The position numbers and the translations under genes are program-made. Positions 26,801-53,953 of a DNA stretch of 64,000 nucleotides are shown piece after piece. The notes beneath the pieces were generated by a model. That model was not told the origin of the DNA. It ran no database searches and saw nothing but the letters and a program-made list of their open reading frames with translations. Within the stretch, counting starts at the first letter, position 1, and every line of letters begins with the position of its first letter. Origin of the DNA: Escherichia phage 241Ecol014PP; sequence record OR062943.1. One strand, 5' to 3'.

Positions 26801-29473
26801 GATCTAAGATCGAACATGGATGGAACATCCATATCTATGCAAGTTCCGGTAACAAACGGATACAAGCGTGTTGTGATGATCATTAAGTGCGATCTGATAG
26901 GTAAGCAAGTTCTTGCAGAGAACGGAACTTCCACCCACCTATTTGAGACTGCTCTGCACTATCAGTTTGCTGATTCACCTTTTGCAGGGGATAAGAGAAT
27001 ATCTGACACAGACGCTGTGCGATGCAAGAAATTTATGCTAGGTGGTGGGTGGTGGTGGTATGAATTTGACTTAACAGACAAATTCACCGACACGTCTAAA
27101 GTAGTGACGGGGCTTCGTCTAGACCTTGGCGAAAACATGCACAAAAGTGTTTGTGATGGCACCTACGGTGACCCAACAATCTACTTAAAGTATGTCTCTT
27201 TTGAGCACCCAGAGGATGTTGTTTATGGTCCAAAACTGAGACTGTTTGGCAATTGGATTGCTAAAGACAGGGTAGGTATGGGCAAGAAGGTAAGAGGCTT
27301 CTTAATGGATGCCGGTACAGAGGACATGCTAGTCAATGCAGTGTGGCCTGAATTACCTGGGACTCAGTGGAACAACTCAGCCAAATCTATAAACTGGTTC
27401 AATATCCACAGGGCTATGTGGACAACCAACTGTTACCTGTGGAAAGAGCTGAATGACGGCGCTTTCGGGTTCACAGGCGGCAGAAGAATGGCAATCATTT
27501 GCTGGACAACGTTGCAAAGATGTTATGACCATGACTACGAGATTGGAGGTAGGGCATGGAAAAATATTAGGGATAGAATCATAACCAACTTTGCAGATCC
27601 TAACGGTGGTGGAGCGTATGGCTTCGACTGCAGCAGGCTCATCCATTTGAACGGATCCTCTGCCTACAAGAAAGAAGGTTACTCTGGGTCTATGATAGAA
27701 TGGGGCCTGGTGAAAGATGCTCGCGTGCTGATGGGTCAACAACTTGCTGCTGCAATAGGTCCTAATGCAGTGCAATCTGTTAAACCTGCGTGGTTTGATA
27801 TCCCATTGTGGTCATCCGGTACACCAGGAACTGCTGCAATCAACCCTACCACGGGGGATCTGGAAATCTCTTGGGAGGACTTGAAGCAGGTTGGAGGCTG
27901 GGATAAAACAGGGTATCAGGTCCAGTGGTGGAGGGCTGATGGATCTTTAGCCGCTGATGAGTTTGTTAAGGACAATTTCTACACCATGTCCTCTGCAAAA
28001 GCACAGCAATTATTTGGTCAGGCCACTCCGTCAACGATCACCATGTCTATGTGCTGTAAAGACAACAGGACTGGAGCTTTGGGGCCAAGGGTTGCTAAGG
28101 TTTTCTCAGGTATTAAATGGAATCTCCCTGTTCAAAGTGTTTCATGGAAGCAAATAGGTGATAACAAGCTGCTGGTTACCCCTGCCTGTCAGTTCAACGC
28201 AACTCTTAACGTTGATCCTGCTGTTGCGGCAAACTCAGCTAAAGCTTCTGACTTCTCTGTGTCTAACACTGCTATGGCAGATGTGAGGAAGATTGACACA
28301 CTGAACGCCAGAATTACCTGTAAAAACACTTATGGCACATTCCAAATCATCAACAACTTCACAGATGCTGATTCTAAGGTAGTAAGGACAGCAAGCCAGA
28401 CTCTGAGTTTAGGGACTCTAGCCTATGCGGCCATGATCACCGAACAGTCGGCAACACTCCAAGGAGGCGGTGTAGGCAAGTCCATTGCAACACCTGTGTG
28501 GAAGCCGAATGAGTGGGTTGTGTTTGATTTGACTGTGGACTTCTCCAGTGATAATAACTGGACATGGGTAAGGAATTGTTTGTCACAGTTGATGGGCGGT
28601 CCAAGCTCCATTAGCGATAGTCACGACTCTACTGACCCGAGCGTGTTCCAGGTGGGTAAAACTCACCCAGAGACTGGAGAAACGTTGCCTGACAGGAAGT
28701 ATGCTTTGGTTTGCATCTCTTACGGGAAGGCAGATGTCACCTTCTCAGGGACACACACTTATAACGGAACCTACAACTTCTCAAGGAAGTATAGTCTCAA
28801 AGCAGGGAACATTGTAGACGAGGTTGGTGTGCTGTATAATCCAGGTAACGGCATAGGGATTGTGGGTGGTAAACTGCAGATGCAGGAACCTTCTATTACC
28901 CCTTCCAACGTATCCGGTATTAGAAAGACTTGGGAAAGTAGTAATACCAACATTGCAACAGTGGATGCTGCCACAGGGCTGGTAACATTTAAAGCTACTG
29001 GGAATGTCACCATAAAGTTTGTAGTTACTGATGATGCAGGGCGCAAAACGTCTTCAACATCTTTTACTGTCAAACAGATGGCACCACAGTGGAGAATGTG
29101 GATAGGTACAGCAACAAACGGGGCATACCCTAATCCGGCAGGTACTTCTGGTATGAAGACTTTCTCTACAAGCAAACCGATGGAGTACGGCAGCGGTCCT
29201 AAGGTAGGGCAGATGGTGTACTTTGGTGCGTATATTCCTGAAATTATAGGGCTTCCTAGAAGTCAGCTTCAGTTGCTGTTTGGGGCTGGTGTTGACGATC
29301 TTGCCACTTTCGGGTATAGCGACAACATCGAGGCTGCAAGGAGTTCAGGATGGGTAGGGTTCAGAATGGAGTCTGGAAAGGAAGGCAGGATTCTAGGGAC
29401 AGCCTCTATAGGTGTTATGTTCCCTGGTGACCAGCAGTATCGTCTAGAAGCCTACGCAACCTTTTCTCGTTAA
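23837..29473 (+). CDS. giant adhesin/tail fibre-like protein with C-terminal bacterial Ig-like (Big_2-like) domain
   Basis: 1878 aa; RBS GGAG; segment SGIRKTWESSNTNIATVDAATGLVTFKATGNVTIKFVVTDDAGRKTSSTSFTV fits Big_2 pattern. Confidence 0.5.
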   Translation: MLPIPLLKLGRHFLDKRGGIKELAVLSYPIDNSDGTSNTVSYVNSLAILFDDGQLNITGYNRFGECRTGDLDTINYPNEAAWNVDHVWRADRAFVIRTFDNQFFYIGCTAGLIGSDAAGGNDVCVREWTPLPEQIVKGLHLDTHPERLIEVMGGINNTVWVIAEAEGTGILNLYGSGNNTYGSLHVDKNQHATPVKIGETSENPETGPWKNPSINCEVHDNSVIFGGPRGFWIAGYDFLRNNSRNDLVWPPVQITRNDLRGIPADEEWKGFMCGPNGAIIATQRMHTPNDQQLVNVFYGQDVWGDDTWRSLNITYTHEVIMARGYGTSGIFFNNGTKQYRGFSRNLCNDIGAQSANNSPRANFIHYQALATAKYVEQRLPVSWTESVYFQGIHREGFLGTFTVVNGKLWWSGIPRGSFAGSNNLFGGRLNSQGFTEVPENWYKNVPVDSWGVDDIFDVNGVSSVSNIYIGDTVKMKLKPQPEGATFIIDKIELVNAAGTVVTDANYQFSTNWNHGGANEVVVTQYNRNVNRRGLYSVKITYHDKHGTGRTHTTRTLNWNTIVPAYPSDGKWHTVGRNKQFHVNDTVYFGLNAAQPAVEGDTSYMVRLHRMDAGSVTYDVTQEIYNQRRNTYDNLVQTQALWEFNPNGRGGKMLQVNEQNGTSLTVHEHPNPWPDPGKPNSGARTLKIVSHDAGYFGIRWEATVRYADGTTNNIGITLGGTSEDNSLKIAYTPRGISIDNMDVVRNGYGDVNVKVTLGEHLGGERIIMYAFDHDPRTNGTYANQAWSYLINAPEPNTKEFYYGMKRDVCKKTGTHDWIAICVKDERTAWDEPVNRWFIGIPTRSDKYVAEYIVCMGGTNLNMCWNEDVNKYSDYDYMRDYSCNLWFNQTTGYPPRQARVNPAIFTDTQVFLTKQANEVQTFKNKYDPNKWFYNCYGAFFWGPGELPGGGSCFEAATYASDRFMGQVKKYKIIPGPETLGNAVDPYIIMSDLRSNMDGTSISMQVPVTNGYKRVVMIIKCDLIGKQVLAENGTSTHLFETALHYQFADSPFAGDKRISDTDAVRCKKFMLGGGWWWYEFDLTDKFTDTSKVVTGLRLDLGENMHKSVCDGTYGDPTIYLKYVSFEHPEDVVYGPKLRLFGNWIAKDRVGMGKKVRGFLMDAGTEDMLVNAVWPELPGTQWNNSAKSINWFNIHRAMWTTNCYLWKELNDGAFGFTGGRRMAIICWTTLQRCYDHDYEIGGRAWKNIRDRIITNFADPNGGGAYGFDCSRLIHLNGSSAYKKEGYSGSMIEWGLVKDARVLMGQQLAAAIGPNAVQSVKPAWFDIPLWSSGTPGTAAINPTTGDLEISWEDLKQVGGWDKTGYQVQWWRADGSLAADEFVKDNFYTMSSAKAQQLFGQATPSTITMSMCCKDNRTGALGPRVAKVFSGIKWNLPVQSVSWKQIGDNKLLVTPACQFNATLNVDPAVAANSAKASDFSVSNTAMADVRKIDTLNARITCKNTYGTFQIINNFTDADSKVVRTASQTLSLGTLAYAAMITEQSATLQGGGVGKSIATPVWKPNEWVVFDLTVDFSSDNNWTWVRNCLSQLMGGPSSISDSHDSTDPSVFQVGKTHPETGETLPDRKYALVCISYGKADVTFSGTHTYNGTYNFSRKYSLKAGNIVDEVGVLYNPGNGIGIVGGKLQMQEPSITPSNVSGIRKTWESSNTNIATVDAATGLVTFKATGNVTIKFVVTDDAGRKTSSTSFTVKQMAPQWRMWIGTATNGAYPNPAGTSGMKTFSTSKPMEYGSGPKVGQMVYFGAYIPEIIGLPRSQLQLLFGAGVDDLATFGYSDNIEAARSSGWVGFRMESGKEGRILGTASIGVMFPGDQQYRLEAYATFSR

Positions 29474-29482
29474 CAAGGGGGT

Positions 29483-29518
29483 AAATAAAAAAGGGGCCGT
29501 TTGGCCCCTTTCTTTTTA
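29483..29518. terminator. bidirectional rho-independent terminator between converging transcription units
   Basis: AAATAAAAAAGGGGCC-gttt-GGCCCCTTTCTTTTTAT: A tract, 8-bp stem, T tract; + gene ends 29473, - gene ends 29522. Confidence 0.75.
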
Positions 29519-29521
29519 TAG

Positions 29522-29722
29522 TTAGTAATACTCCCAACATGCCCCATCTTCAGACGGCTTGACGCGCTTACCTTTATGGTCAACATAGGTATAGCCACAA
29601 CCTTCACAAATAACAGGTGCTGCATAGCCTTCCTTCCACTGATCCTCAGTGATCAGACCTTCCAAATCTTTGCAGTCAAAGCCAAACAACTCTTCAGAAC
29701 AGTCTTTACAAAAATCAGCCAT
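29522..29722 (-). CDS. small zinc-ribbon-like protein
   Basis: 66 aa; Cys pairs CKDC ... CEGCGY. Confidence 0.45.
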   Translation of the reverse strand: MADFCKDCSEELFGFDCKDLEGLITEDQWKEGYAAPVICEGCGYTYVDHKGKRVKPSEDGACWEYY

Positions 29723-29791
29723 CTCTATCAGTCTCCATATTTAACCAATCTATATTACATATTGCCGAAGAAACAGTATTTCATTTCATCA

Positions 29792-30010
29792 TCACAGATC
29801 TCCAACAACTTCCCAAATACCCCAGTGAGCATCTATATCCTTGATAAAGTATCTTTCTCCACGGTTTGTCCACACACCTATCCCAACTTTACCATCTATC
29901 CCATTGTATACATCTGCCTCATACTCTTTGCCCGGTGTAAAGTGTACACCCATCATAAGGGCTGTTATTCCATTAGGATTTTTAAATTTAACAAATTTTA
30001 CTTTGCTCAT
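29792..30010 (-). CDS. hypothetical protein
   Basis: 72 aa ORF in co-oriented leftward operon. Confidence 0.4.
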   Translation of the reverse strand: MSKVKFVKFKNPNGITALMMGVHFTPGKEYEADVYNGIDGKVGIGVWTNRGERYFIKDIDAHWGIWEVVGDL

Positions 30011-30011
30011 A

Positions 30012-30341
30012 TTACTTAATCCTTGCAGTTACAGTAGCGCTATACCCCATGTAGTTATGAGACATAAAGAATGTAAGCCCTTTAAGTTCAGGATTCTTTC
30101 TAAGAAATCGTTTCAATTTTCGAATGCAATTAACACCATGATCATAGTTTGAGAAATTAAATTTAATACCCTGCTCCATCATAGTGCACACTTCTTCATG
30201 GGTATGCCATTGTCTATCGTGGTCACAAAACCAGTAACCAATACCTTCTTTTTCTTGGATATGCAATCCCCAAAATACTTTATGCATTGGATATTTTGGT
30301 TTTCTACCATGATAATGTAGTTTAATATTCACATGTGCCAT
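30012..30341 (-). CDS. hypothetical protein
   Basis: 109 aa; His/Cys-containing; RBS GGAG upstream on minus strand. Confidence 0.45.
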   Translation of the reverse strand: MAHVNIKLHYHGRKPKYPMHKVFWGLHIQEKEGIGYWFCDHDRQWHTHEEVCTMMEQGIKFNFSNYDHGVNCIRKLKRFLRKNPELKGLTFFMSHNYMGYSATVTARIK

Positions 30342-30377
30342 TTTTTTTTGTTACTCCGTTCTGTATCTGTGATAATG

Positions 30378-30407
30378 AGAATAGCAAACTGGGGTGTGTG
30401 CTGTCAA
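30378..30407 (-). promoter_or_regulatory. possible internal promoter TTGACA-N18-TATTCT (minus strand)
   Basis: Reverse complement of 30402-30407 is TTGACA; -10-like TATTCT at 30378-30383. Confidence 0.25.
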
Positions 30408-30512
30408 CAACATTTTTAAGCGTTTTGGGGAAGTTTTTTGAAAGGTGGGTGTAATCACAAGAGAGGGTGGAGTTATTGAAGGCACAGGCCTCTTTTGAGG
30501 CCTTAAAATCGA

Positions 30513-30893
30513 TTATGACACTTTGACGTAGCGCTCTGACAGAGCTGGAAAGCCAAAAGCAGTACCTATACTACCGTATGCTACCCACCATTGAAGTTCA
30601 TCGTGACACCATTTTCCGATCAGGAAGGTGCTGGGGTAGCGGGTCAGTATTTTGGCATAAGCTTTAGGGTCTGCATCTTCTGGGATAATGATACTTGGAA
30701 CATCTTTGTTATGGCCACAGCAGCAGTTTAGAGTTTTCAATCCTGCCGCCCATAGACTCATGATAGGCTTAGCCATGCACTTATCAAGGCACACACGTTT
30801 TTTGCCGTCACGGAGCTTTTTAGGCACATCAACGATAACATTTTGATGCTTGGCACCTTTCACTTTCCAATTATAGGATTTACACTTGCACAT
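30513..30893 (-). CDS. cysteine-rich protein, probable metal-binding, function unknown
   Basis: 126 aa; CKCK, CLDKC, NCCCGH, WCHDE motifs. Confidence 0.45.
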   Translation of the reverse strand: MCKCKSYNWKVKGAKHQNVIVDVPKKLRDGKKRVCLDKCMAKPIMSLWAAGLKTLNCCCGHNKDVPSIIIPEDADPKAYAKILTRYPSTFLIGKWCHDELQWWVAYGSIGTAFGFPALSERYVKVS

Positions 30894-30923
30894 TTAATCA
30901 GTCTCCATCTAGAAAGTAATACT

Positions 30924-31094
30924 TTACTTAAAATCTTTGTCACCTATTACGATTGCACGAATCCACTCATTGTGATGTTCAATGGCGGTAAGGTGTAACA
31001 TAATGCAGTGATTGTCATTACCAAACACGGTGCGGTAAGCTTTAGCAGCACCATGATATAACTTCCACATCAGGTAATGATATCTTCGCCTCAT
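30924..31094 (-). CDS. possible small ORF (56 aa) below ORF-track threshold
   Basis: ATG with GGAG 8 nt upstream on minus strand, fills gap between 30893 and 31100; hand-translated, not verified. Confidence 0.25.
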   Translation of the reverse strand: MRRRYHYLMWKLYHGAAKAYRTVFGNDNHCIMLHLTAIEHHNEWIRAIVIGDKDFK

Positions 31095-31099
31095 GGCTC

Positions 31100-31564
31100 T
31101 TACTCCGGTTCAGGATCTGGGTAATCTTCAATAATAAAGGGCCATCCGTTCCGCTTAGCCTCAGACTTATACTCGATCTCCTTCATTGCAAACTCTAACT
31201 GATTCTTAGCCGGAATACATGCCGGAGAATCATCAATCCAGATATCTGGGTAGATATCAAACTGCGCCAGATAGGCTGCCTTCTGAACACCACCAGTATA
31301 AAACACACCAACATCGAGCTCCTTGCGCCAATACTCAATGTCTACATTGTCTTGAGTAATGAATCGGAAAGTTACAAGGTAGACTGTCCACCCCTCATTC
31401 TTTAGATCCCTGATCAGGCGGGAGAAGATGAAAGGGCTCGCATTAAACGTTCCATCAAAGTCAATGGCAATGATGTGCGTGCCGTGGCGAGTCTCATATG
31501 GATTGCTAGTGGTAAGATTGCTGTAGTTAAAAGGAACTTCTTCCCCGCAGTAGCTGTAGTCCAT
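31100..31564 (-). CDS. HAD-superfamily 5'(3')-deoxyribonucleotidase-like phosphatase
   Basis: Start taken as ATG at 31564 (track GTG at 31570), 2 nt after upstream stop; motif I IAIDFDGTF and motif IV IWIDDSP. Confidence 0.55.
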   Translation of the reverse strand: MDYSYCGEEVPFNYSNLTTSNPYETRHGTHIIAIDFDGTFNASPFIFSRLIRDLKNEGWTVYLVTFRFITQDNVDIEYWRKELDVGVFYTGGVQKAAYLAQFDIYPDIWIDDSPACIPAKNQLEFAMKEIEYKSEAKRNGWPFIIEDYPDPEPE

Positions 31565-31566
31565 AT

Positions 31567-31842
31567 TCACACCTTCTCGTTGATAAATTTACGGGCGGTT
31601 TGGTGAGTTGTTTCTGCTGTCTTCAGAATGATATTAATTTTATTGTCAAGATCATTCATCTCTGCAGTTAATTCAGGAATCTCTCCGGCATGCATAGTGA
31701 AATCATACATAGACATTCCCAGAATCTCATTGATGCGGCGGTTGCATTCTGCAGCACGCTGGTTCATTTTCCAAGCTAACACCAAAGCCTCCTGCGTAGC
31801 CTCTAGTGCAAAATCTAATACGTCGGCCTCTTCTTTCGTCAT
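31567..31842 (-). CDS. hypothetical protein
   Basis: 91 aa, helical/charged. Confidence 0.4.
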   Translation of the reverse strand: MTKEEADVLDFALEATQEALVLAWKMNQRAAECNRRINEILGMSMYDFTMHAGEIPELTAEMNDLDNKINIILKTAETTHQTARKFINEKV

Positions 31843-31899
31843 GTCAGTCTCTCCTGTTGTATTGTTGGTAGGTGTATGAATACCTTATAACTCACCTTT

Positions 31900-32466
31900 T
31901 TATTCAAACTGCAATAGTAAATCCACCACCGCGCTAGGTCTGTCAACAAATTCCCCTGGCCCACATGCCCATAAAGGGTATCCGTCTACATACCGCCAAA
32001 TCCAACCTGCAGTGTGGAGTTCGAGCAGGGCAGTACCGTCCTTGCTGTCAACCACTCTTTCCCACAGTGTTGGGCAGCGAAGCTTGAGAATCGGATCACC
32101 TCCCTTATACCCATCCATGTAGATACCCATTGCAAAGTTCAGCATCATCTTTTTGTGCACCGATCTCTTACTGAGGGTGCTCATCACTTCCTCTTTGTGA
32201 ATGTTTGTAAGCCTCTCCTTGGCTACCCGCAGATCGTTGCAACCATTGTTCAGCAGATCTTCCAGACACTTGATCCGAAGGTCGTGAATGTCTTTGTCGT
32301 GTACCGTTGGCACAGGGTCGTAGCGGTATAGCACTGTTGATACAAGGTTGCTCGGGTGTGGGTCTGACAGCAACCCATAACCCCAATACTCTTCTGTATC
32401 TGAAAGGACAAGACACCCAATGTCTCTGTCAAGCTTTCCTGTGTTGTAAGCCACATTGACCGCCAT
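31900..32466 (-). CDS. hypothetical protein
   Basis: 188 aa ORF in operon. Confidence 0.45.
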   Translation of the reverse strand: MAVNVAYNTGKLDRDIGCLVLSDTEEYWGYGLLSDPHPSNLVSTVLYRYDPVPTVHDKDIHDLRIKCLEDLLNNGCNDLRVAKERLTNIHKEEVMSTLSKRSVHKKMMLNFAMGIYMDGYKGGDPILKLRCPTLWERVVDSKDGTALLELHTAGWIWRYVDGYPLWACGPGEFVDRPSAVVDLLLQFE

Positions 32467-32468
32467 GA

Positions 32469-32714
32469 CTATAGCTCCACTAGCAAAGTGCTTTCAAAGT
32501 GCCGTTCATGCAGACCGTTGTAAGGAACCACTTCTACAACGCCATCACGGACATATGAGGCCATCATGGTGGTATAATCTCCAAACGGGTTGGTATTGTC
32601 ACTAACCACAACCACCTTCTGCCCTTCCTTGGCAGAGTGCCAAATAGATCTGCACTTCATCAGGTGTTCGAGAGCTCCAGGTAAAATTTTGTTACGTTCT
32701 TTACGGGTCTTCAT
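32469..32714 (-). CDS. hypothetical protein
   Basis: 81 aa; 4-nt overlap with upstream gene. Confidence 0.4.
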   Translation of the reverse strand: MKTRKERNKILPGALEHLMKCRSIWHSAKEGQKVVVVSDNTNPFGDYTTMMASYVRDGVVEVVPYNGLHERHFESTLLVEL

Positions 32715-33160
32715 AACAGATATAGCTCCTTATGAAAGTGGTCTTTTAATTTCTCACTGAGAAACTTCTTGATACCTTCCTCTAAAGTGTTTTCGATGTA
32801 GTCCAGCTTAACTGCTTCGATGGACATATCATAGATCGCCAGCTCTAAGCTGTCAAGTCCCATCATAGCATGAACCATAAGATTTTCATCTTCAGATACA
32901 TTTAGGGGACTTCCTATAACATCTGGAGGCAGAATAGTTTCCCAATTATTCTGGGTGGTAGTTCTCCCTCCCTCTACTTTACGGCGCAGTTCGAATGTGT
33001 TCTTAGTGTAGAACACTTCATAAGAAACGATACGACTGTCGCTCTCATAATAAACGAAGTTCAGGTAGGAGCCTAGCCGCAGTCGGCAAACTTCCACCCC
33101 AAACCATTGTTTCTTATAAGAATTCAGGCTAATGCTGTCGCATTCACGTTTGCTCAACAC
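32711..33160 (-). CDS. hypothetical protein
   Basis: 149 aa. Confidence 0.4.
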   Translation of the reverse strand: MLSKRECDSISLNSYKKQWFGVEVCRLRLGSYLNFVYYESDSRIVSYEVFYTKNTFELRRKVEGGRTTTQNNWETILPPDVIGSPLNVSEDENLMVHAMMGLDSLELAIYDMSIEAVKLDYIENTLEEGIKKFLSEKLKDHFHKELYLL

Positions 33161-33176
33161 GGCTCTCTCCTTTTTG

Positions 33177-33410
33177 TTAATCTTCGTAAATCAGGATTTC
33201 TGCTTTAGGTTTTCGTGCTTTCAGGTCCAGCTCTATCCAGTGCACCATAGCTGTTTCAAGAAAAACAGCTTGGATGCATCCGTCCTCAGCGTGCCCCACC
33301 AACATAACAAGATCTTCACCTTCGTCATCTGCATCACGAACATACAGAATCTCTCCAGATTCAAAGTCTTTCACAACCTGATTGTTGGATAATTTACGAA
33401 TTTTTGCCAT
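33177..33410 (-). CDS. small protein, member of dispersed small paralog family
   Basis: 77 aa; FESGEILYVRDADDEGEDLVMLVGHAEDG matches F-x-x-G-x-x-Y/V...D-(D/E)-x-G family motif. Confidence 0.45.
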   Translation of the reverse strand: MAKIRKLSNNQVVKDFESGEILYVRDADDEGEDLVMLVGHAEDGCIQAVFLETAMVHWIELDLKARKPKAEILIYED

Positions 33411-33411
33411 A

Positions 33412-33675
33412 TCAGAAACCCTCTAAAAAGCTCTTGTAGAAAACAATCTCAGTATCAACACCAGTAACGATCTTGTCGTTCCTGATTTCATCCGTAAGGT
33501 AGGTGTCAAAACGCAGAACCTGTGTGGTATTGTCACACATCCACTCAGCTGTGACCATAGCGAAAATCTTAGCATCTTCATTATCTGGTGTGAATGTTAC
33601 CACCTCGCCGCATTTAAACTTTTCGATGGGTTGAGTGTTAGCTTTCGGTTCTGCAATGGTGATTTTCGTGGTCAT
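33412..33675 (-). CDS. small protein, member of dispersed small paralog family
   Basis: 87 aa; FKCGEVVTFTPDNEDAKIFAMV. Confidence 0.45.
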   Translation of the reverse strand: MTTKITIAEPKANTQPIEKFKCGEVVTFTPDNEDAKIFAMVTAEWMCDNTTQVLRFDTYLTDEIRNDKIVTGVDTEIVFYKSFLEGF

Positions 33676-33935
33676 TACTCTTCCTCCATAGTTTCACCAA
33701 ATACTTCGATACGAGCATCGAGCTCGGTTGCTTTCAGCTCTCCAACAAAATCTTTTAGTTCTTTCTCGTCCAGATCGTAAGCCCACACACAAGAGGAACA
33801 TGCAGATTTCACAATCAGCAGCGTAGATACACGGCCTGACTCTGTGATCATGCTCACAATGGTTCCCACAGGGAACGTGTTGATAGCTTTTTTTTTAACT
33901 GGGCGTTCAGATTTGATTACTACTTCTGTTGCCAT
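33675..33935 (-). CDS. small protein, member of dispersed small paralog family
   Basis: 86 aa; FPVGTIVSMITESGRVSTLLIV. Confidence 0.45.
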   Translation of the reverse strand: MATEVVIKSERPVKKKAINTFPVGTIVSMITESGRVSTLLIVKSACSSCVWAYDLDEKELKDFVGELKATELDARIEVFGETMEEE

Positions 33936-33950
33936 AAATAACGTCCTCTC

Positions 33951-35411
33951 TTACTTGGCGTACTCGATTAATTCCACAGTTTTCCCAAAGCTAGGGATAT
34001 AATTTTTATTATACCCTTCAGTGAGAACCCATAAAGTATCGTACTTTTTCCACTTATTGTCAACAGCCTTTTGTTCAAAGTTATGCTCAAAGTATAGGTC
34101 GGTCAGGACGATGACATCTTTTGCATTCGGTATGTTGGCATCCAGATACTCGAACACGCAAGCAGCTGTTGTGCCCCATGTTGAGTGGACCTCATAGTTG
34201 ATCATCTCATCTATGTTACCGCGAGTGTATACTTTGACCTCTCCAACCTCGGTTGACCAACAGAACATCGTAACCTTAAACTCTTTATACAGATTGCACA
34301 ATCCGGTGATTTCATTGAACATTTTCTTTAAAGTTCTTTGAGATATCGAGCCAGAAACGTCTAAAGCTACAACAATATCTATAGTGTTTTCAGGATTACG
34401 ACCGGGAACAATAACGTGCTGGTTCTTGTTTATAGCCCCAACTTTTCGCATTGTGCTGGTCAAAGAACCAGATCGGCGACCAGGTTTTCTGTAGGTCAGT
34501 TCAGCCTTTCGTTTAGACAACATGCGTTGCTTAATAATGTCTATATAGTTGATTACAGGCTTACCTCTGTTCTTGACAAACTCACGCACCGCCTCAGGGC
34601 AACGACCTCCGGAAGCTTGCATTGCTGCCTCCAGCATGTCACCAGAGTCCTGCATGGCCTGATCTTTATCAGATTGGCTGATTACAGGTTGTGGCTGATC
34701 ATATCCCAGAGCCTTTCCAAGATCATCACTGGTGCCACCGTTCCCACTCATGTGATCATCGGTTTGTCGCTTATCCCCTTGAGAGTTCTCACCTTTACCG
34801 CTCTTACTTTTACCGTTATTCTGATCTCTTTGCTTATCAAGAACTGCATAGACGTTCTCAGCAATCCACCCATGAAACTTCATGTCGCAGTAGCAGCTGG
34901 CTAAGAAGCCAAAAGGCTTACCTTTCACAAACGTAGTGCTTTTCCCCTTCGGGAAGAAAACACAAGGGGGCTTGCTAAAGTCAACCACAAGACCTGTGTT
35001 GATAACGTGATCACAAGCAATATTGAACAGTTCCGGCTCAAAGCTTTTGCCACGGACCAGGTGATCACAGATAATATGCCCCACCTCATGTGACAGAAGG
35101 AAAGCCACCTCTTTCACAGATTTGGGGGAATAGAAAACTTCAGCCATCTCAAACTGCTCGCCAGTTAGAGAGGCCTTAAGAATAGCCTTGCGTTCATCAG
35201 CCAACCCCATAATGAACTCAGGACTGTAATAGATGCGTTTATGGTCGGTTGCCATGGTGGAGCACCATGTGTGGTTTTCTACGAACTGTAACCCTGACAG
35301 CAGTGTGCCATAAAACGGCAGCTTTTCAAGGAGATACATACGTGCAGCCTGTAACATTCTCAGGGCATCATCTTTCTGTGAGGCAATGATTTCTGAACTT
35401 CTGCTATCCAT
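33951..35411 (-). CDS. putative metallopeptidase (HExxH) + von Willebrand factor A domain protein (MoxR/CobS-partner type)
   Basis: Start taken as ATG at 35411 (GGAG 5 nt upstream; track start 35432 lies in a hairpin); HEVGHIICDH motif; VWA-like VVALDVSGSISQ... Confidence 0.6.
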   Translation of the reverse strand: MDSRSSEIIASQKDDALRMLQAARMYLLEKLPFYGTLLSGLQFVENHTWCSTMATDHKRIYYSPEFIMGLADERKAILKASLTGEQFEMAEVFYSPKSVKEVAFLLSHEVGHIICDHLVRGKSFEPELFNIACDHVINTGLVVDFSKPPCVFFPKGKSTTFVKGKPFGFLASCYCDMKFHGWIAENVYAVLDKQRDQNNGKSKSGKGENSQGDKRQTDDHMSGNGGTSDDLGKALGYDQPQPVISQSDKDQAMQDSGDMLEAAMQASGGRCPEAVREFVKNRGKPVINYIDIIKQRMLSKRKAELTYRKPGRRSGSLTSTMRKVGAINKNQHVIVPGRNPENTIDIVVALDVSGSISQRTLKKMFNEITGLCNLYKEFKVTMFCWSTEVGEVKVYTRGNIDEMINYEVHSTWGTTAACVFEYLDANIPNAKDVIVLTDLYFEHNFEQKAVDNKWKKYDTLWVLTEGYNKNYIPSFGKTVELIEYAK

Positions 35412-35424
35412 TAAAACTCCAGAA

Positions 35425-35442
35425 GGGGCCATTGGCCCCTGT
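35425..35442 (-). terminator. intergenic GC hairpin, possible weak terminator/processing site
   Basis: GGGGCC-attg-GGCCCC; near-identical to stem of terminator at 29483-29518; flanking T run weak on minus strand. Confidence 0.3.
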
Positions 35443-35444
35443 TA

Positions 35445-36422
35445 TTATTTAACGTGTTTGAAAATACCTGCCAACTCGGTCATTGTCATGCGGGTGGTCT
35501 TCATAAGATCTGTCATAGCTTTCTCCATAATTGGGGATACTACCATAAAGTTTCCTTTAGTGAAACCTTTATTCCAGTCGGTCACTAACAGGGGTTTAAG
35601 TCCAGCTCCGAGACGTTCACCAGTTAAAGCACAGCATTTGCGAATATACAAACTCTTAAATTGGCTGAACGACAGATCAACCTTCATACCTGCATCGTAG
35701 AACGTTTGACAATAGAAAGTGTAAGCCTTAGCAACCTCAACATCATCAGGCAGTGCAGGAACCTCTTCTGCAATCTCCTCTTCGACCTCCTGAGGCTCTT
35801 TTTCCTCTTCAGAGTTCTGTTCTTCAATTTCTTCTGTCACAGTTTCGTTTACGATGTCTGAAATGTGTTTGTTGGCTGCACGATCAGCCATGAAATTTTT
35901 AAAGTCCTGCATTGGTGACATATCTTCTTCCTCTTCGTCAAAAAGTGCTAGTTTATCTTCTTCTGTCCCGTATTGCAAGATGAAATCTTCAAAAGTATAA
36001 TCACCTTTCAATTTCTCCATACGCTCTTCGCTCAGGTGGAGCATCATCTGCTGGACAATTTTTCGATCAGTTTCGTCTTTAATCAAGACTGCAGTCTTTT
36101 TATCTACCAGACAGTCCTTCAGAGCGTTGCACCTCAACCCTACCACACAACAATTATCAATTGCGTAAGGACCTTCATCATCTATCCGCTCCAGAGATGG
36201 GTAGAAAGGATTTCCCAGTCCGTTTTCATCTGTGTGCGTGTCGAAAGGTATAAGGGTATAGTCGCATACCCCTTCTCCTAAAAGTTTTTTACCAAATAGG
36301 AGGTATTCTTCCCACGACAGTTCGAACTCTATATCTCGTTTCCGTGCATTATTCTTTTTGCGTCTATATTTTTTGAGCAGGCGCTCTAACTCTTCTGTTG
36401 TATAATATTTTTCAAGATTCAT
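35445..36422 (-). CDS. protein with two degenerate HNH-like repeats separated by an acidic linker
   Basis: Start uncertain (36422 ATG downstream of predicted promoter, or 36485/36488); repeats ...SLERIDDEGPYAIDNCCVVGLRCNALK and CALTGERL...LLVTDWNKGFTKGNFMVV...K; Glu-rich linker. Confidence 0.45.
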   Translation of the reverse strand: MNLEKYYTTEELERLLKKYRRKKNNARKRDIEFELSWEEYLLFGKKLLGEGVCDYTLIPFDTHTDENGLGNPFYPSLERIDDEGPYAIDNCCVVGLRCNALKDCLVDKKTAVLIKDETDRKIVQQMMLHLSEERMEKLKGDYTFEDFILQYGTEEDKLALFDEEEEDMSPMQDFKNFMADRAANKHISDIVNETVTEEIEEQNSEEEKEPQEVEEEIAEEVPALPDDVEVAKAYTFYCQTFYDAGMKVDLSFSQFKSLYIRKCCALTGERLGAGLKPLLVTDWNKGFTKGNFMVVSPIMEKAMTDLMKTTRMTMTELAGIFKHVK

Positions 36423-36453: not shown

Positions 36454-36482
36454 ATCGTATCAATTGTCTCAACAGATGTCAA
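36454..36482 (-). promoter_or_regulatory. leftward promoter TTGACA-N17-TACGAT
   Basis: Minus-strand TTGACA = revcomp of 36477-36482; TACGAT = revcomp of 36454-36459. Confidence 0.45.
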
Positions 36483-36495
36483 CATCAAGAACGTG

Positions 36496-36524
36496 TTGAC
36501 TTTACTCTAAATCTCCGATATAGT
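36496..36524 (+). promoter_or_regulatory. rightward promoter TTGACT-N17-TATAGT
   Basis: TTGACT 36496-36501, spacer 17, TATAGT 36519-36524; 40 nt upstream of ORF 36565. Confidence 0.6.
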
Positions 36525-36564: not shown

Positions 36565-37464
36565 ATGGCAAATCTTAACAGTTTTAGTACTCGGTGGCAA
36601 CAGGATATAACAACCAATCTCTCGGCTGGAGACATTCTTTCTGCAATTTACGAGGCTTTAGATGCTAAAGCTACTTCAAAAGCGGTTTGTACCAACCCCC
36701 TAATCCCTGTAGTGATGAAGGTGATTGAGCGTAGATTGGTATCTGGGTCTGATAAGTGGACATATTTAGATAATGAAGGACACACCTATTCCAATGGGTA
36801 TGTCGATATAAAAGTAGAATACGCGGTATCATACCGCCGGAGCGGTTCTGTAACTTTCAACTTCTCTGGAGGTTTTCGATCTCTGGCTACCTCACCTTTT
36901 GTTTCCTCAGAGGAGAAGTATGAGCTGCCATTTCTTTGGATGATGGCTAACGCGACAGGAAAAACCCCCGTTAGCATCCGAGTAGAATACAACTACAACG
37001 GATCTAGTAAGATCTATGCCGAAAGTGTCTCAGCAAGTTTTTATTTTGTGATGGGGGATGGAATCCTCAAACATATAAAGATGTGTGATATGCATGATGT
37101 TATAAATGAAGTGACTGATAAGAATGTTCTAGTGAAAGACCTCAACAATTTTTATACACCCGGAGACTATTACGTCAGCCGTCCACTGTGCATCTTTAAT
37201 GCCGCACATCCTCTAGGTGAGTATTTGATCGCCAATAGCGATATTGCCAATAACCGCTTCGAGGTAGCAAGAGTTCAGAATGAGGTATTGACATCTTGTA
37301 AGAGCGGTGATAAGTTTACCGAAGAAGAGATGGGTGTTTTAGAAATGATGGGATATAAGTGTAGCCTTTGGGTAGATGAGGTGTTCAATGATTGCATCTA
37401 TGGACAGGATATTTACCCATTAAAGAAGTATACTGATTCCAGTTTAATTTACGCGGAGATTTGA
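36565..37464 (+). CDS. hypothetical protein (first gene of rightward operon)
   Basis: 299 aa; RBS AGGAG. Confidence 0.5.
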   Translation: MANLNSFSTRWQQDITTNLSAGDILSAIYEALDAKATSKAVCTNPLIPVVMKVIERRLVSGSDKWTYLDNEGHTYSNGYVDIKVEYAVSYRRSGSVTFNFSGGFRSLATSPFVSSEEKYELPFLWMMANATGKTPVSIRVEYNYNGSSKIYAESVSASFYFVMGDGILKHIKMCDMHDVINEVTDKNVLVKDLNNFYTPGDYYVSRPLCIFNAAHPLGEYLIANSDIANNRFEVARVQNEVLTSCKSGDKFTEEEMGVLEMMGYKCSLWVDEVFNDCIYGQDIYPLKKYTDSSLIYAEI

Positions 37465-53200: not shown

Positions 53201-53677
53201 TGCGTTACCGTCCCTTCTGGAGCAATCATTGTGAGAAGGAATGGTAAAGTGGCAGTGTGCGGTAACTGTAATAACGCCAAAGCTTACTCTTCTGTAGCAG
53301 GCAAGGAGATTTCCCGTAACGATGGTAAGCCTGTCACGTATGGGGTTATGTACGGGGCACAAAAAGATAAAGTTGCAGATATGCTGGATATCTCCCCAGA
53401 GTTGGGGCAAAGGGTGATCGATGCACTTTGGGATGCCAACCCCGGTCTTAAGGGGCGCAAAGAGGATCTGGAGAAATTCTGGGAAGCAACAGGTAAGAAG
53501 TTTATCTACTCTTTTGATGGTCATGCTATCTGGACTCGATCTAAACACTCTTTACTTAATGCATACCAACAAAATGGTGGTGCATCGCTGTGTGACTTAG
53601 TTGGGATACTCATGCACCACCAAATGGTGAAGCGTGGGTGGTACGATGAAGGTGTTCGTCGTATTATTTATTACCAT
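50285..53677 (+). CDS. family A (T7-like) DNA polymerase, exon 1 (contains an in-frame intein)
   Basis: RBS AAGGAGAA; exo motif FDFEASG; motif A region IGIDGSNLEQL; after intein motif B KPVTYGVMYGA; ORF stops at 53683 before motif C, implying an intron. Confidence 0.8.
52298..53266 (+). mobile_element. intein (about 323 aa) with LAGLIDADG-type homing endonuclease domain, inserted between polymerase motifs A and B
   Basis: Begins CYSGDTQIL (block A) with MVTDQHRMLTVDH (block B, TxxH); ends ...VAVCGN followed by +1 Cys (CNNAKAY); internal LLIAIHDDGH and LFIASLSNWDGW motifs; host junction NGDAH/CNNAK parallels T7 NGDIHTKNQ. Confidence 0.7.
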
Positions 53678-53953
53678 AAATAACATTGTGGCTTCATAGA
53701 GTAATCTATGTCGAATAACCTCTTTAACTGCGGGAAGCCTAAACCTTATGGCAAGGTAATCCGCAACGAAGCGCTCAAAAGAGCGAACGCTCAGAGGCCA
53801 TTCCGAAAGGAAGTAGACCAGCAAGTGCGGTCGAAATGGGAGGATTCCTGTGGTTGCTTATCATAGGAATATGAGATGGTCCGATCCTACGTGAAAACGT
53901 ATGGCTATGCACGTAATGGTGCGGGGTAGCTTAACGACCTACCTGAACTATTG
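53678..53953 (+). mobile_element. ORF-less group I intron (276 nt) splitting the DNA polymerase gene just before motif C
   Basis: Exon 1 ends ...YYH (last nt U at 53677), exon 2 begins DEYQIQV at 53954 giving HDE motif C; intron last nt G at 53953; intron GUGG (53688-53691) can pair with exon CCAU (P1 with U.G); in-frame stops inside. Confidence 0.6.

Follow-up and report, generated by a model that had tools for sequence, protein, structure and literature searches.

The early small-gene regions of bacteriophage T4 include srd. The closest described relative of the locus analysed here is in rV5, for which four transcription units were proposed, "11-26" among them (Kropinski et al., 2013, Virol J 10:76; PMC3606486). 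The same paper calls gp11 an Srd-like anti-sigma factor, its Table S3 gives genes 14-26 the sizes of the open reading frames (ORFs) described below and almost no homologs, and its Table S4 lists the promoter P011 and the terminator t026/t027 (PMC3606486). Here we analyse 64,000 nucleotides (nt) of Escherichia phage 241Ecol014PP (record OR062943.1; this whole stretch is the window) and in particular the block of small leftward genes at 29522-33935. Judged by its sequence, the block is the distal part of the rV5 "genes 11-26" leftward unit and is thus already catalogued. We read it, with a probability of about 65%, as an early auxiliary operon in which an old core of the subfamily is combined with conserved genes confined to the genus and with two cassette sites that recombine.

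The source phage is a Vequintavirus, an rV5-like E. coli myophage. Positions 29400-34000 matched 120 phage records in megablast, and the 71 with a query coverage of 80% or more (92-97% identity) are all rV5-like E. coli myophages of this genus; the closest is JohannBauhin (Bas53) at 97.2%. Besides this identity among close relatives, the locus shares with rV5 the gene order, promoter P011, the position of the internal promoter P025 and the bidirectional terminator t026/t027. It differs in that rV5 gp25 (135 amino acids, aa) is replaced by a pair of genes encoding 72 and 109 aa, and rV5 gene 23 (49 aa), which overlaps gene 22, is probably spurious. The annotations of JohannBauhin and several other phages have "hypothetical protein" for every gene in 29522-33935, and elsewhere stray depositor labels occur ("polynucleotide kinase", "tail protein", "HNH endonuclease"). 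About 16 GenBank records (MG0656xx), named 'Campylobacter phage' with C. jejuni as host, are 95-97% identical across the whole block and are probably mislabelled or contaminant phages.

An earlier note on this DNA had described a tightly packed, co-oriented leftward block running from a promoter to a bidirectional terminator, and this is what is found: the unit has 15 genes on the minus strand, 13 of them within 29522-33935 (56-188 aa in the ORF listing; Table 1). Neighbouring genes are separated by -4 to +16 nt, with the exception of four gaps of 30, 57, 69 and 171 nt, and the GC skew flips sign over 29-37 kb, as expected of a leftward-transcribed block. The promoter at the head of the unit has the sequence of rV5 P011 (PMC3606486) and lies next to a divergent rightward promoter at 36496-36524. 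At the far end the terminator stem, GGGGCC-loop-GGCCCC with T/U tracts on both strands, folds with -19.7 kcal/mol in the minus-strand transcript and -18 kcal/mol in the plus-strand one, and none of 200 shuffled sequences was as stable. Promoter, co-orientation, lack of a strong internal terminator and a terminal terminator, the marks by which an operon can be recognised at this level, are therefore all present. Within the unit, the promoter-like site at 30407-30378 has the intergenic position of rV5 P025, and the intergenic region that holds it is also the left boundary of the swapped gp25-site cassette; a further promoter-like site is found at 32856. Together with the hairpin at 30485-30503 these two sites could subdivide the unit. 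The site corresponding to rV5 P020 (31914-31946, minus strand) reads TTGACA-21 nt-TACTAT, and since a 21-nt spacer is too long for the usual sigma-70 range, P020 is doubtful as a promoter.

The ORFs behave as genes when substitutions are counted by codon position against nine related genomes. Substitutions fall mostly at position 3 in 10 of the 13 ORFs, and also in both upstream genes, with per-position counts of 10/0/151 for 33412-33675, 22/16/190 for 31900-32466 and, as a further example, 24/5/176; the skew is weakest in the 56-aa ORF (27/26/70). Three ORFs gave no usable codon-position signal, 33675-33935 for want of a full-length ungapped match, and 30012-30341 and 29792-30010 because they show at most two differences in three carrier genomes. 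No internal stop was found in any gene tested in the nine genomes, and each of the 13 ORFs matches its own PHROG over the full length.

Sequence comparison reveals a layered mix rather than a uniform island. The old subfamily layer consists of the Srd-like protein, the DUF2201/VWA metallopeptidase, the 149-aa protein and the HAD-fold protein; a layer of six genes conserved in the genus only comprises those for the 188-, 91-, 81- and 56-aa proteins and paralogs 2 and 3; and three genes are shared beyond the subfamily, encoding the CxC...CCCGH domain protein, the four-Cys zinc ribbon and the 109-aa protein of Krischvirus type. When the syntenic region of Seunavirus, Mydovirus, Henunavirus and Certrevirus phages was searched by tblastn, the peptidase was recovered in all four genera, the Srd-like gene in three and a HAD-like gene in three, and the 149-aa gene gave a weak match in one (26-30% identity in Seunavirus phages). 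By profile comparison the 149-aa protein also aligns with the product of the gene directly after the peptidase in three other genera (hhalign Prob 94.8%, E = 5e-8, 106 columns), so that at least two genes of the block, this one and the HAD gene, appear conserved across the subfamily, with relatives in other Vequintavirinae genera. For most of the 13 genes no counterpart was found there. Within the genus the picture is different from the variable accessory content that the earlier note had proposed to look for: such variation is seen at the two cassette sites, whereas the nine other genes are present in at least 115 genus genomes, and the 188-aa and 126-aa proteins, searched singly, are nearly always at least 95% identical. 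These nine widely present genes behave as genus core and not as variable cargo.

The 188-aa protein was found in 115 records, all Vequintavirus and all with at least 95% protein identity; a relationship to a gene of ~210 aa that other genera carry at the syntenic slot was considered and dropped, as hhalign gave no signal. The 81-, 91- and 56-aa proteins have no relatives beyond the genus at E < 1e-3. The 91-aa gene lies where other genera have a MazG-like gene, and was likewise rejected as a MazG (13-18% identity, EExxE motif absent, no hhalign signal). The 'tail protein' label given to the 149-aa gene by PHROG and RefSeq was not retained either: the gene sits in a non-structural unit, has no 'MS evidence' (mass spectrometry) tag and is unnamed among the rV5 virion proteins.

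Both cassette sites are dimorphic. At the first, 73 genomes carry the 86-aa gene of the window (paralog 1) and 44 carry two genes instead, which are 39-43% identical to it and to each other and give the tandem family a fourth copy there; the breaks in homology, at 33688 and 33924, are the gene ends. At the second, extending over about 29750-30413, the 72-aa and 109-aa pair is present in the window and in 28 other Vequintavirus genomes, the remainder having gp25 (135 aa), which over its N-terminal half is ~50% identical to the 72-aa protein. Genomes with alternative cassettes are otherwise 96-97% identical, and since all four combinations occur among five genomes compared, the sites recombine freely. 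The 109-aa gene is mobile: homologs with 58-70% protein and 75-77% DNA identity are present in 59 T-even-like phage genomes, Krischvirus included, and in Krischvirus E26 the homolog lies between baseplate genes, adjoining a methyltransferase gene.

Three small paralogous genes had been proposed in the block, and iterative profile searches bear out a distant tandem family, with moderate and transitive support. Direct BLAST comparison within the window misses the relationship (E = 0.3). Searching with a profile of paralog 1 plus its two alleles retrieves paralog 2 (E = 2.2e-4 among 430 window ORFs); once paralog 2 is added, the profile also retrieves paralog 3 (E = 3.3e-4) in a full-length collinear alignment that scores 15.7 bits, where the best of 2000 shuffles reaches 10.4. 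No further members were found among the other window ORFs or at distant loci, and a wider search for homologs of paralog 1 returned nothing below 82% identity, and no more than two related loci came from IMG/VR.

The product of the 156-aa gene had been called a HAD nucleotidase. The HAD part of this name is upheld by the fold and by all four motifs, and the nucleotidase part is putative, the protein being capless and unlike the NT5C type. The fold is confirmed by an AlphaFold2 (AF2) model with a predicted local distance difference test score (pLDDT) of 89.5, which contains the Rossmann-like alpha/beta core; its top Foldseek matches are the CopA P-domain, KDO8P and KDN9P phosphatases, BT_0820 and AphA. 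Motif I (DFDGT) is placed at the end of strand 1, with D37, D39 and T41 at least 90% conserved in an alignment of 100 sequences and invariant in a second alignment (A2), and motifs II-IV follow in order, T67, K97, D113 and D114 being invariant in the 100 sequences; these seven are the predicted catalytic residues. Profile search gave 1258 homologs, mostly of 100-140 aa, and none of the 120 listed contains a Pfam domain. No curated HAD model of Pfam or NCBIfam matches at E <= 0.1, and the best PDB profile matches are HAD proteins with E of only 0.18-1. Since the helical C1 cap after motif I, which forms the nucleotide pocket in NT5C-like enzymes, is absent, identity as an NT5C-type nucleotidase fits poorly. 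The protein is more similar to capless (C0) HAD phosphatases such as the 3'-phosphatase domain of T4 polynucleotide kinase, KdsC/KDN-9-P phosphatases, BT_0820 (2OBB) and class B/C acid phosphatases, from which it differs in having no Pfam, NCBIfam or PDB sequence match, a core of only ~100-140 aa and no kinase domain. In Seunavirus, Mydovirus and Henunavirus the HAD homolog directly follows and overlaps a MazG-like gene (PF03819, E = 1e-4 to 4e-3; Table 1); no MazG is detectable at that slot in Vequintavirus. By analogy, this pairing hints at nucleotide chemistry for the HAD protein. One homolog has the depositor name 'putative 5'-nucleotidase'.

Two Cys-rich proteins had been put forward as metal-binding, and at the sequence level both indeed have invariant Cys/His residues. 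The 126-aa protein contains the motif CxC...D-x-C...T-x3-CC-G-H, in which C2, C4, D37, C39, W48, T54, C58, C59 and H61 are invariant or nearly so among 75 distant relatives. Its family comprises 959 representative proteins (E <= 1e-3, representatives at 50% identity); the gene itself occurs in 115 genomes of the genus and, among other cultured phages, in no more than a handful, and relatives are also known from metagenomes. Neither a Pfam model nor a solved structure was matched in sequence and profile searches of Pfam and PDB, and an AF2 model from a 10-sequence alignment reached a pLDDT of 51, its Foldseek matches being only noise (E > 0.6). One metagenomic member, P0179 (298 aa), is fused to a class I S-adenosylmethionine (SAM) methyltransferase domain (Methyltransf_24, E = 1.5e-14), which may hint at what the family does.

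One GenBank record names the ortholog of the 126-aa protein 'methyltransferase TYW3'. The D-x2-I-x2-L...T-x-S-S-C-S-G-R pattern of the SAM-dependent tRNA methyltransferases TYW3/Taw3 (PDB 2DRV, 2QG3, 1TLJ), whose signature is (S/T)xSSCxGR, does resemble D-x-C-I-x3-I-x2-L-W...T-x3-C-C-G-H of the phage proteins, with similar spacing, but the latter are about half the length and have extra invariant cysteines (C2, C4, C39). When the 75-sequence phage alignment was compared in hhalign with 91 archaeal Taw3 sequences from a genome scan, exactly the shared motif was aligned, without significance (Prob 2.4%, P = 0.019, 12 confident columns; controls P = 0.5-0.8), and PF02676 does not match the phage protein even at E <= 10. 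We keep the TYW3 link as a lead and do not adopt it.

When the Vequintavirus and Felixounavirus copies of the 66-aa protein are compared, only C5, C8, C39 and C42 remain as invariant cysteines; C17 and C62 are not conserved. This is the classic four-Cys ribbon pattern, which makes the protein a candidate metal binder. It is 70% identical to gp11 of Felixounavirus wV8, encoded in the small-gene region of that phage. Two CxxC pairs ~30 residues apart and an acidic tail are shared with small four-Cys zinc ribbons (LysW, rubredoxin-type knuckles), from which it differs in that no family model matches. One GenBank record labels it 'alpha-aminoadipate carrier protein'; a carrier role of the LysW type seems implausible, because the phage lacks the pathway.

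Table 1. Positions of the features of the leftward unit in the window, from promoter to terminator, followed by the regions in other genera where a MazG-like gene precedes the HAD homolog (L003, L004, L005).
Feature	Position	Strand	rV5 counterpart	Remarks
sigma-70-type promoter	36454-36482	-	P011	TTGACA, 17 nt, TG-extended TACGAT
Srd-like putative anti-sigma gene	35445-36422	-	gp11	first of unit
DUF2201 metallopeptidase + VWA-like protein	33951-35432	-	gp12/13	N4 gp25-like
86 aa, tandem paralog 1	33675-33935	-	gp14	
87 aa, tandem paralog 2	33412-33675	-	gp15	
77 aa, tandem paralog 3	33177-33410	-	gp16	most divergent of the three
149 aa	32711-33160	-	gp17	subfamily-wide
81 aa, basic	32469-32714	-	gp18	genus only by tblastn
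188 aa, genus-confined ORFan	31900-32466	-	gp19	
91 aa, acidic	31567-31842	-	gp20	no significant family match
156 aa, minimal capless HAD-fold putative phosphatase	31100-31570	-	gp21	
56 aa, basic	30924-31094	-	gp22	least constrained gene of block
126 aa, Cys/His-rich domain protein	30513-30893	-	gp24	
hairpin, then promoter-like site	30378-30506	-		hairpin 30485-30503 (-13.1 kcal/mol, no U tract); TTGACA-18-(TG)TATTCT at 30407-30378
109 aa, mobile gene	30012-30341	-		
72 aa	29792-30010	-		related to N-terminal half of rV5 gp25
66 aa, four-Cys zinc-ribbon-like protein	29522-29722	-	gp26	
bidirectional intrinsic terminator	29490-29511	both	t026/t027	common to convergent tail-fibre gene
MazG-like gene before HAD homolog	L003 12600-13321			
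MazG-like gene before HAD homolog	L004 13042-13724			
MazG-like gene before HAD homolog	L005 12552-13320			

The two genes between the promoter and the block do have family matches. The first matches the PHROGs 'decoy of host sigma70' (1.5e-16) and 'Srd anti-sigma factor' (1.3e-10), and homologs 39-41% identical are first in the syntenic unit of three other genera. Its ORF can be extended to a TTG at 36488, a start that would overlap the promoter, and we used the annotated one. The second matches Pfam PF13203 at 5e-28 and PF09967 at 4e-11, and relatives of this DUF2201/VWA protein are present in 685 phage records, N4-like and jumbo phages included. Both genes carry the tag 'HNH endonuclease' in RefSeq and PHROG, which appears to be a propagated annotation error, as Pfam finds no HNH domain in either protein. 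Between them, at 35424-35440, lies a 7-bp GC hairpin (GGGGCC-AAU-GGCCCC, both strands, -13.9 kcal/mol) that resembles the 29.5-kb terminator (70-76% similarity). The first ATG of the peptidase ORF falls within this hairpin, which could attenuate read-through or mask that start codon; in some records the peptidase is given a start 21 nt downstream. Apart from this terminator-like hairpin, only short chance-level repeats were found in the block. Across the divergent promoter, the first gene of the rightward unit (36565-37464, plus strand) bears the name 'putative 1-3 fucosyltransferase' in several records; Pfam does not match it, and its PHROG is one of unknown function.

In the scenario that we propose, host RNA polymerase would start at the sigma-70-type promoter at 36.48 kb and read through to the bidirectional terminator at 29.5 kb, with additional internal starts possible near 32.85 and 30.4 kb. 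Early timing is suggested by the sigma-70-type promoter and the Srd-like first gene. The proteins would then be early auxiliaries that adjust host physiology, nucleotide or RNA chemistry, and among them the polymorphic cassette genes would be the likeliest to have roles tied to the host strain or to its defences. In the rV5 gene table none of the small genes is tagged 'MS evidence', and their products are absent from the virion proteins named by mass spectrometry (PMC3606486). Several points weigh against the proposal. No transcript data for this or any related phage were found in the literature searched, so that "early" and "one operon" are readings of the sequence. The promoter scan returned 22 sites against 17.5 +/- 4 in shuffled sequence, which is no excess, and in three other genera the corresponding intergenic regions yielded no strict sigma-70 consensus site. 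A biochemical function has been demonstrated for none of the 13 proteins, and the HAD protein alone was modelled with confidence.

Shortness (56-91 aa), the lack of family matches and Shine-Dalgarno sequences that are often weak could suggest that many of the small ORFs are not genes but frames left open by chance within a transcribed spacer. We give this next to no credence, and for most of the ORFs it is already refuted, by the codon-position excess, the uninterrupted frames and the full-length PHROG matches described above; the coupled or overlapping starts and stops are also typical of real phage operons. A more serious alternative, still improbable in our opinion, is that these are core genes serving the phage itself, in nucleotide-pool conditioning, as replication accessories or as tail-fibre chaperones, which have diverged too fast to be recognised. 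Strong purifying selection and presence in nearly all genus genomes would agree with this, as would the retention of the HAD and 149-aa genes across genera, the pairing of the former with MazG elsewhere, the adjoining lateral tail-fibre gene and the 'tail protein' label of one gene. It accounts less well for the lack of detectable counterparts of most genes in the syntenic region of other subfamily genera, for the gene replacement tolerated at two sites, and for the divergent orientation, with a terminator separating the unit from the structural genes; the lack of MS tags and of small gene products among the named rV5 virion proteins also speaks against it.

The earlier note had instead seen in the block a candidate host-takeover or anti-defence island of uncharacterised genes. 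Uncharacterised they are: none of the 13 has an informative family match in Pfam, NCBIfam, PHROGs or PADLOC, and all are in PHROGs of 'unknown function' save for the unsupported 'tail protein' label. The note had also named what would count against it, orthologues that are conserved core genes of known function in all relatives, and a known function was found for 0 of the 13, so that the idea survives this check. The description as an accessory early block is supported in part: the two cassette sites, the single genes shared with unrelated phages, and the sigma-70-type promoter with its Srd-like gene speak for it, and the nine genes that behave as genus core speak against it. In a true anti-defence island small acidic proteins, chiefly the tandem paralogs and cassette genes, would inhibit host immune systems, a view we regard as unlikely, though not to the same degree as the previous one. 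It is favoured by the acidic, functionally unassigned nature of these small proteins in an early-looking unit, by the two discrete forms found at both the paralog-1 and gp25 sites, by the single genes common to unrelated coliphages and by the neighbouring divergent unit, which holds rIIA/B. This is a genuine counter-defence pair, acting against RexAB in the rV5-like phage EdH4 (PMC11879866), but its locus is outside the block. Moreover, there are just two forms per polymorphic site rather than many, most genes are nearly invariant within the genus, and no characterised anti-defence, defence or host-takeover family was matched in PHROGs, Pfam and NCBIfam, or in PADLOC for 10 proteins, no dedicated anti-defence library being included; only gp11, outside 29522-33935, matches the host-takeover category of PHROGs. 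The BASEL study found Vequintavirinae "exceptionally susceptible" to restriction-modification (RM) systems, seemingly without effective protection (PMC8594841), and in a 2026 preprint the EcCdnG CBASS operon defends against Bas48-59 (PMC12991175); both weigh against an anti-defence function. No transcriptome, fitness-screen or anti-defence report on these genes was found in the literature searched. Overall, the sequence data neither support nor exclude the anti-defence idea, and the cassette genes would be its most reasonable candidates. A bolder proposal, which we consider a long shot, is that the CxC...D-x-C...CCCGH proteins are an undescribed large family (~960 representatives) of small zinc-dependent phage enzymes, perhaps related to the TYW3 SAM fold and acting on SAM, host tRNA or DNA, and/or that the dimorphic ~80-aa paralogs are new defence-matched inhibitors.

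Elsewhere in the window, a complete group I catalytic intron (RF00028, 64.7 bits, E = 4e-14 in Rfam) is found at 53668-53903 on the plus strand. The large-terminase gene of rV5 was reported to be spliced, with an HNH homing endonuclease (PMC3606486), and the match is probably the intron of that gene.

The block is an ordinary, already catalogued gene set. As an early auxiliary operon it would resemble the early or hyperplastic regions of large lytic coliphages (T4, with srd, and Felixounavirus), with which it shares runs of small, co-oriented and mostly uncharacterised genes, host-type promoters, an Srd-like gene and single genes exchanged between phage groups; it differs from them in that most genes here are fixed within the genus rather than variable. 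What is new is modest: two dimorphic cassette sites, a gene shared with Krischvirus, and two large phage protein families, those of the HAD-like and the Cys-rich protein, that lie outside the curated databases. In addition, the labels 'tail protein', 'polynucleotide kinase', 'HNH endonuclease' and 'methyltransferase TYW3' can be corrected. Phages of the rV5 type rank with the E. coli phages that are isolated most frequently, and they are components of cocktails for biocontrol and therapy; the 13-gene block has no assigned function across more than 100 sequenced genomes; the two discrete cassette sites and the one mobile gene would provide the first targets for tests of host range and counter-defence.

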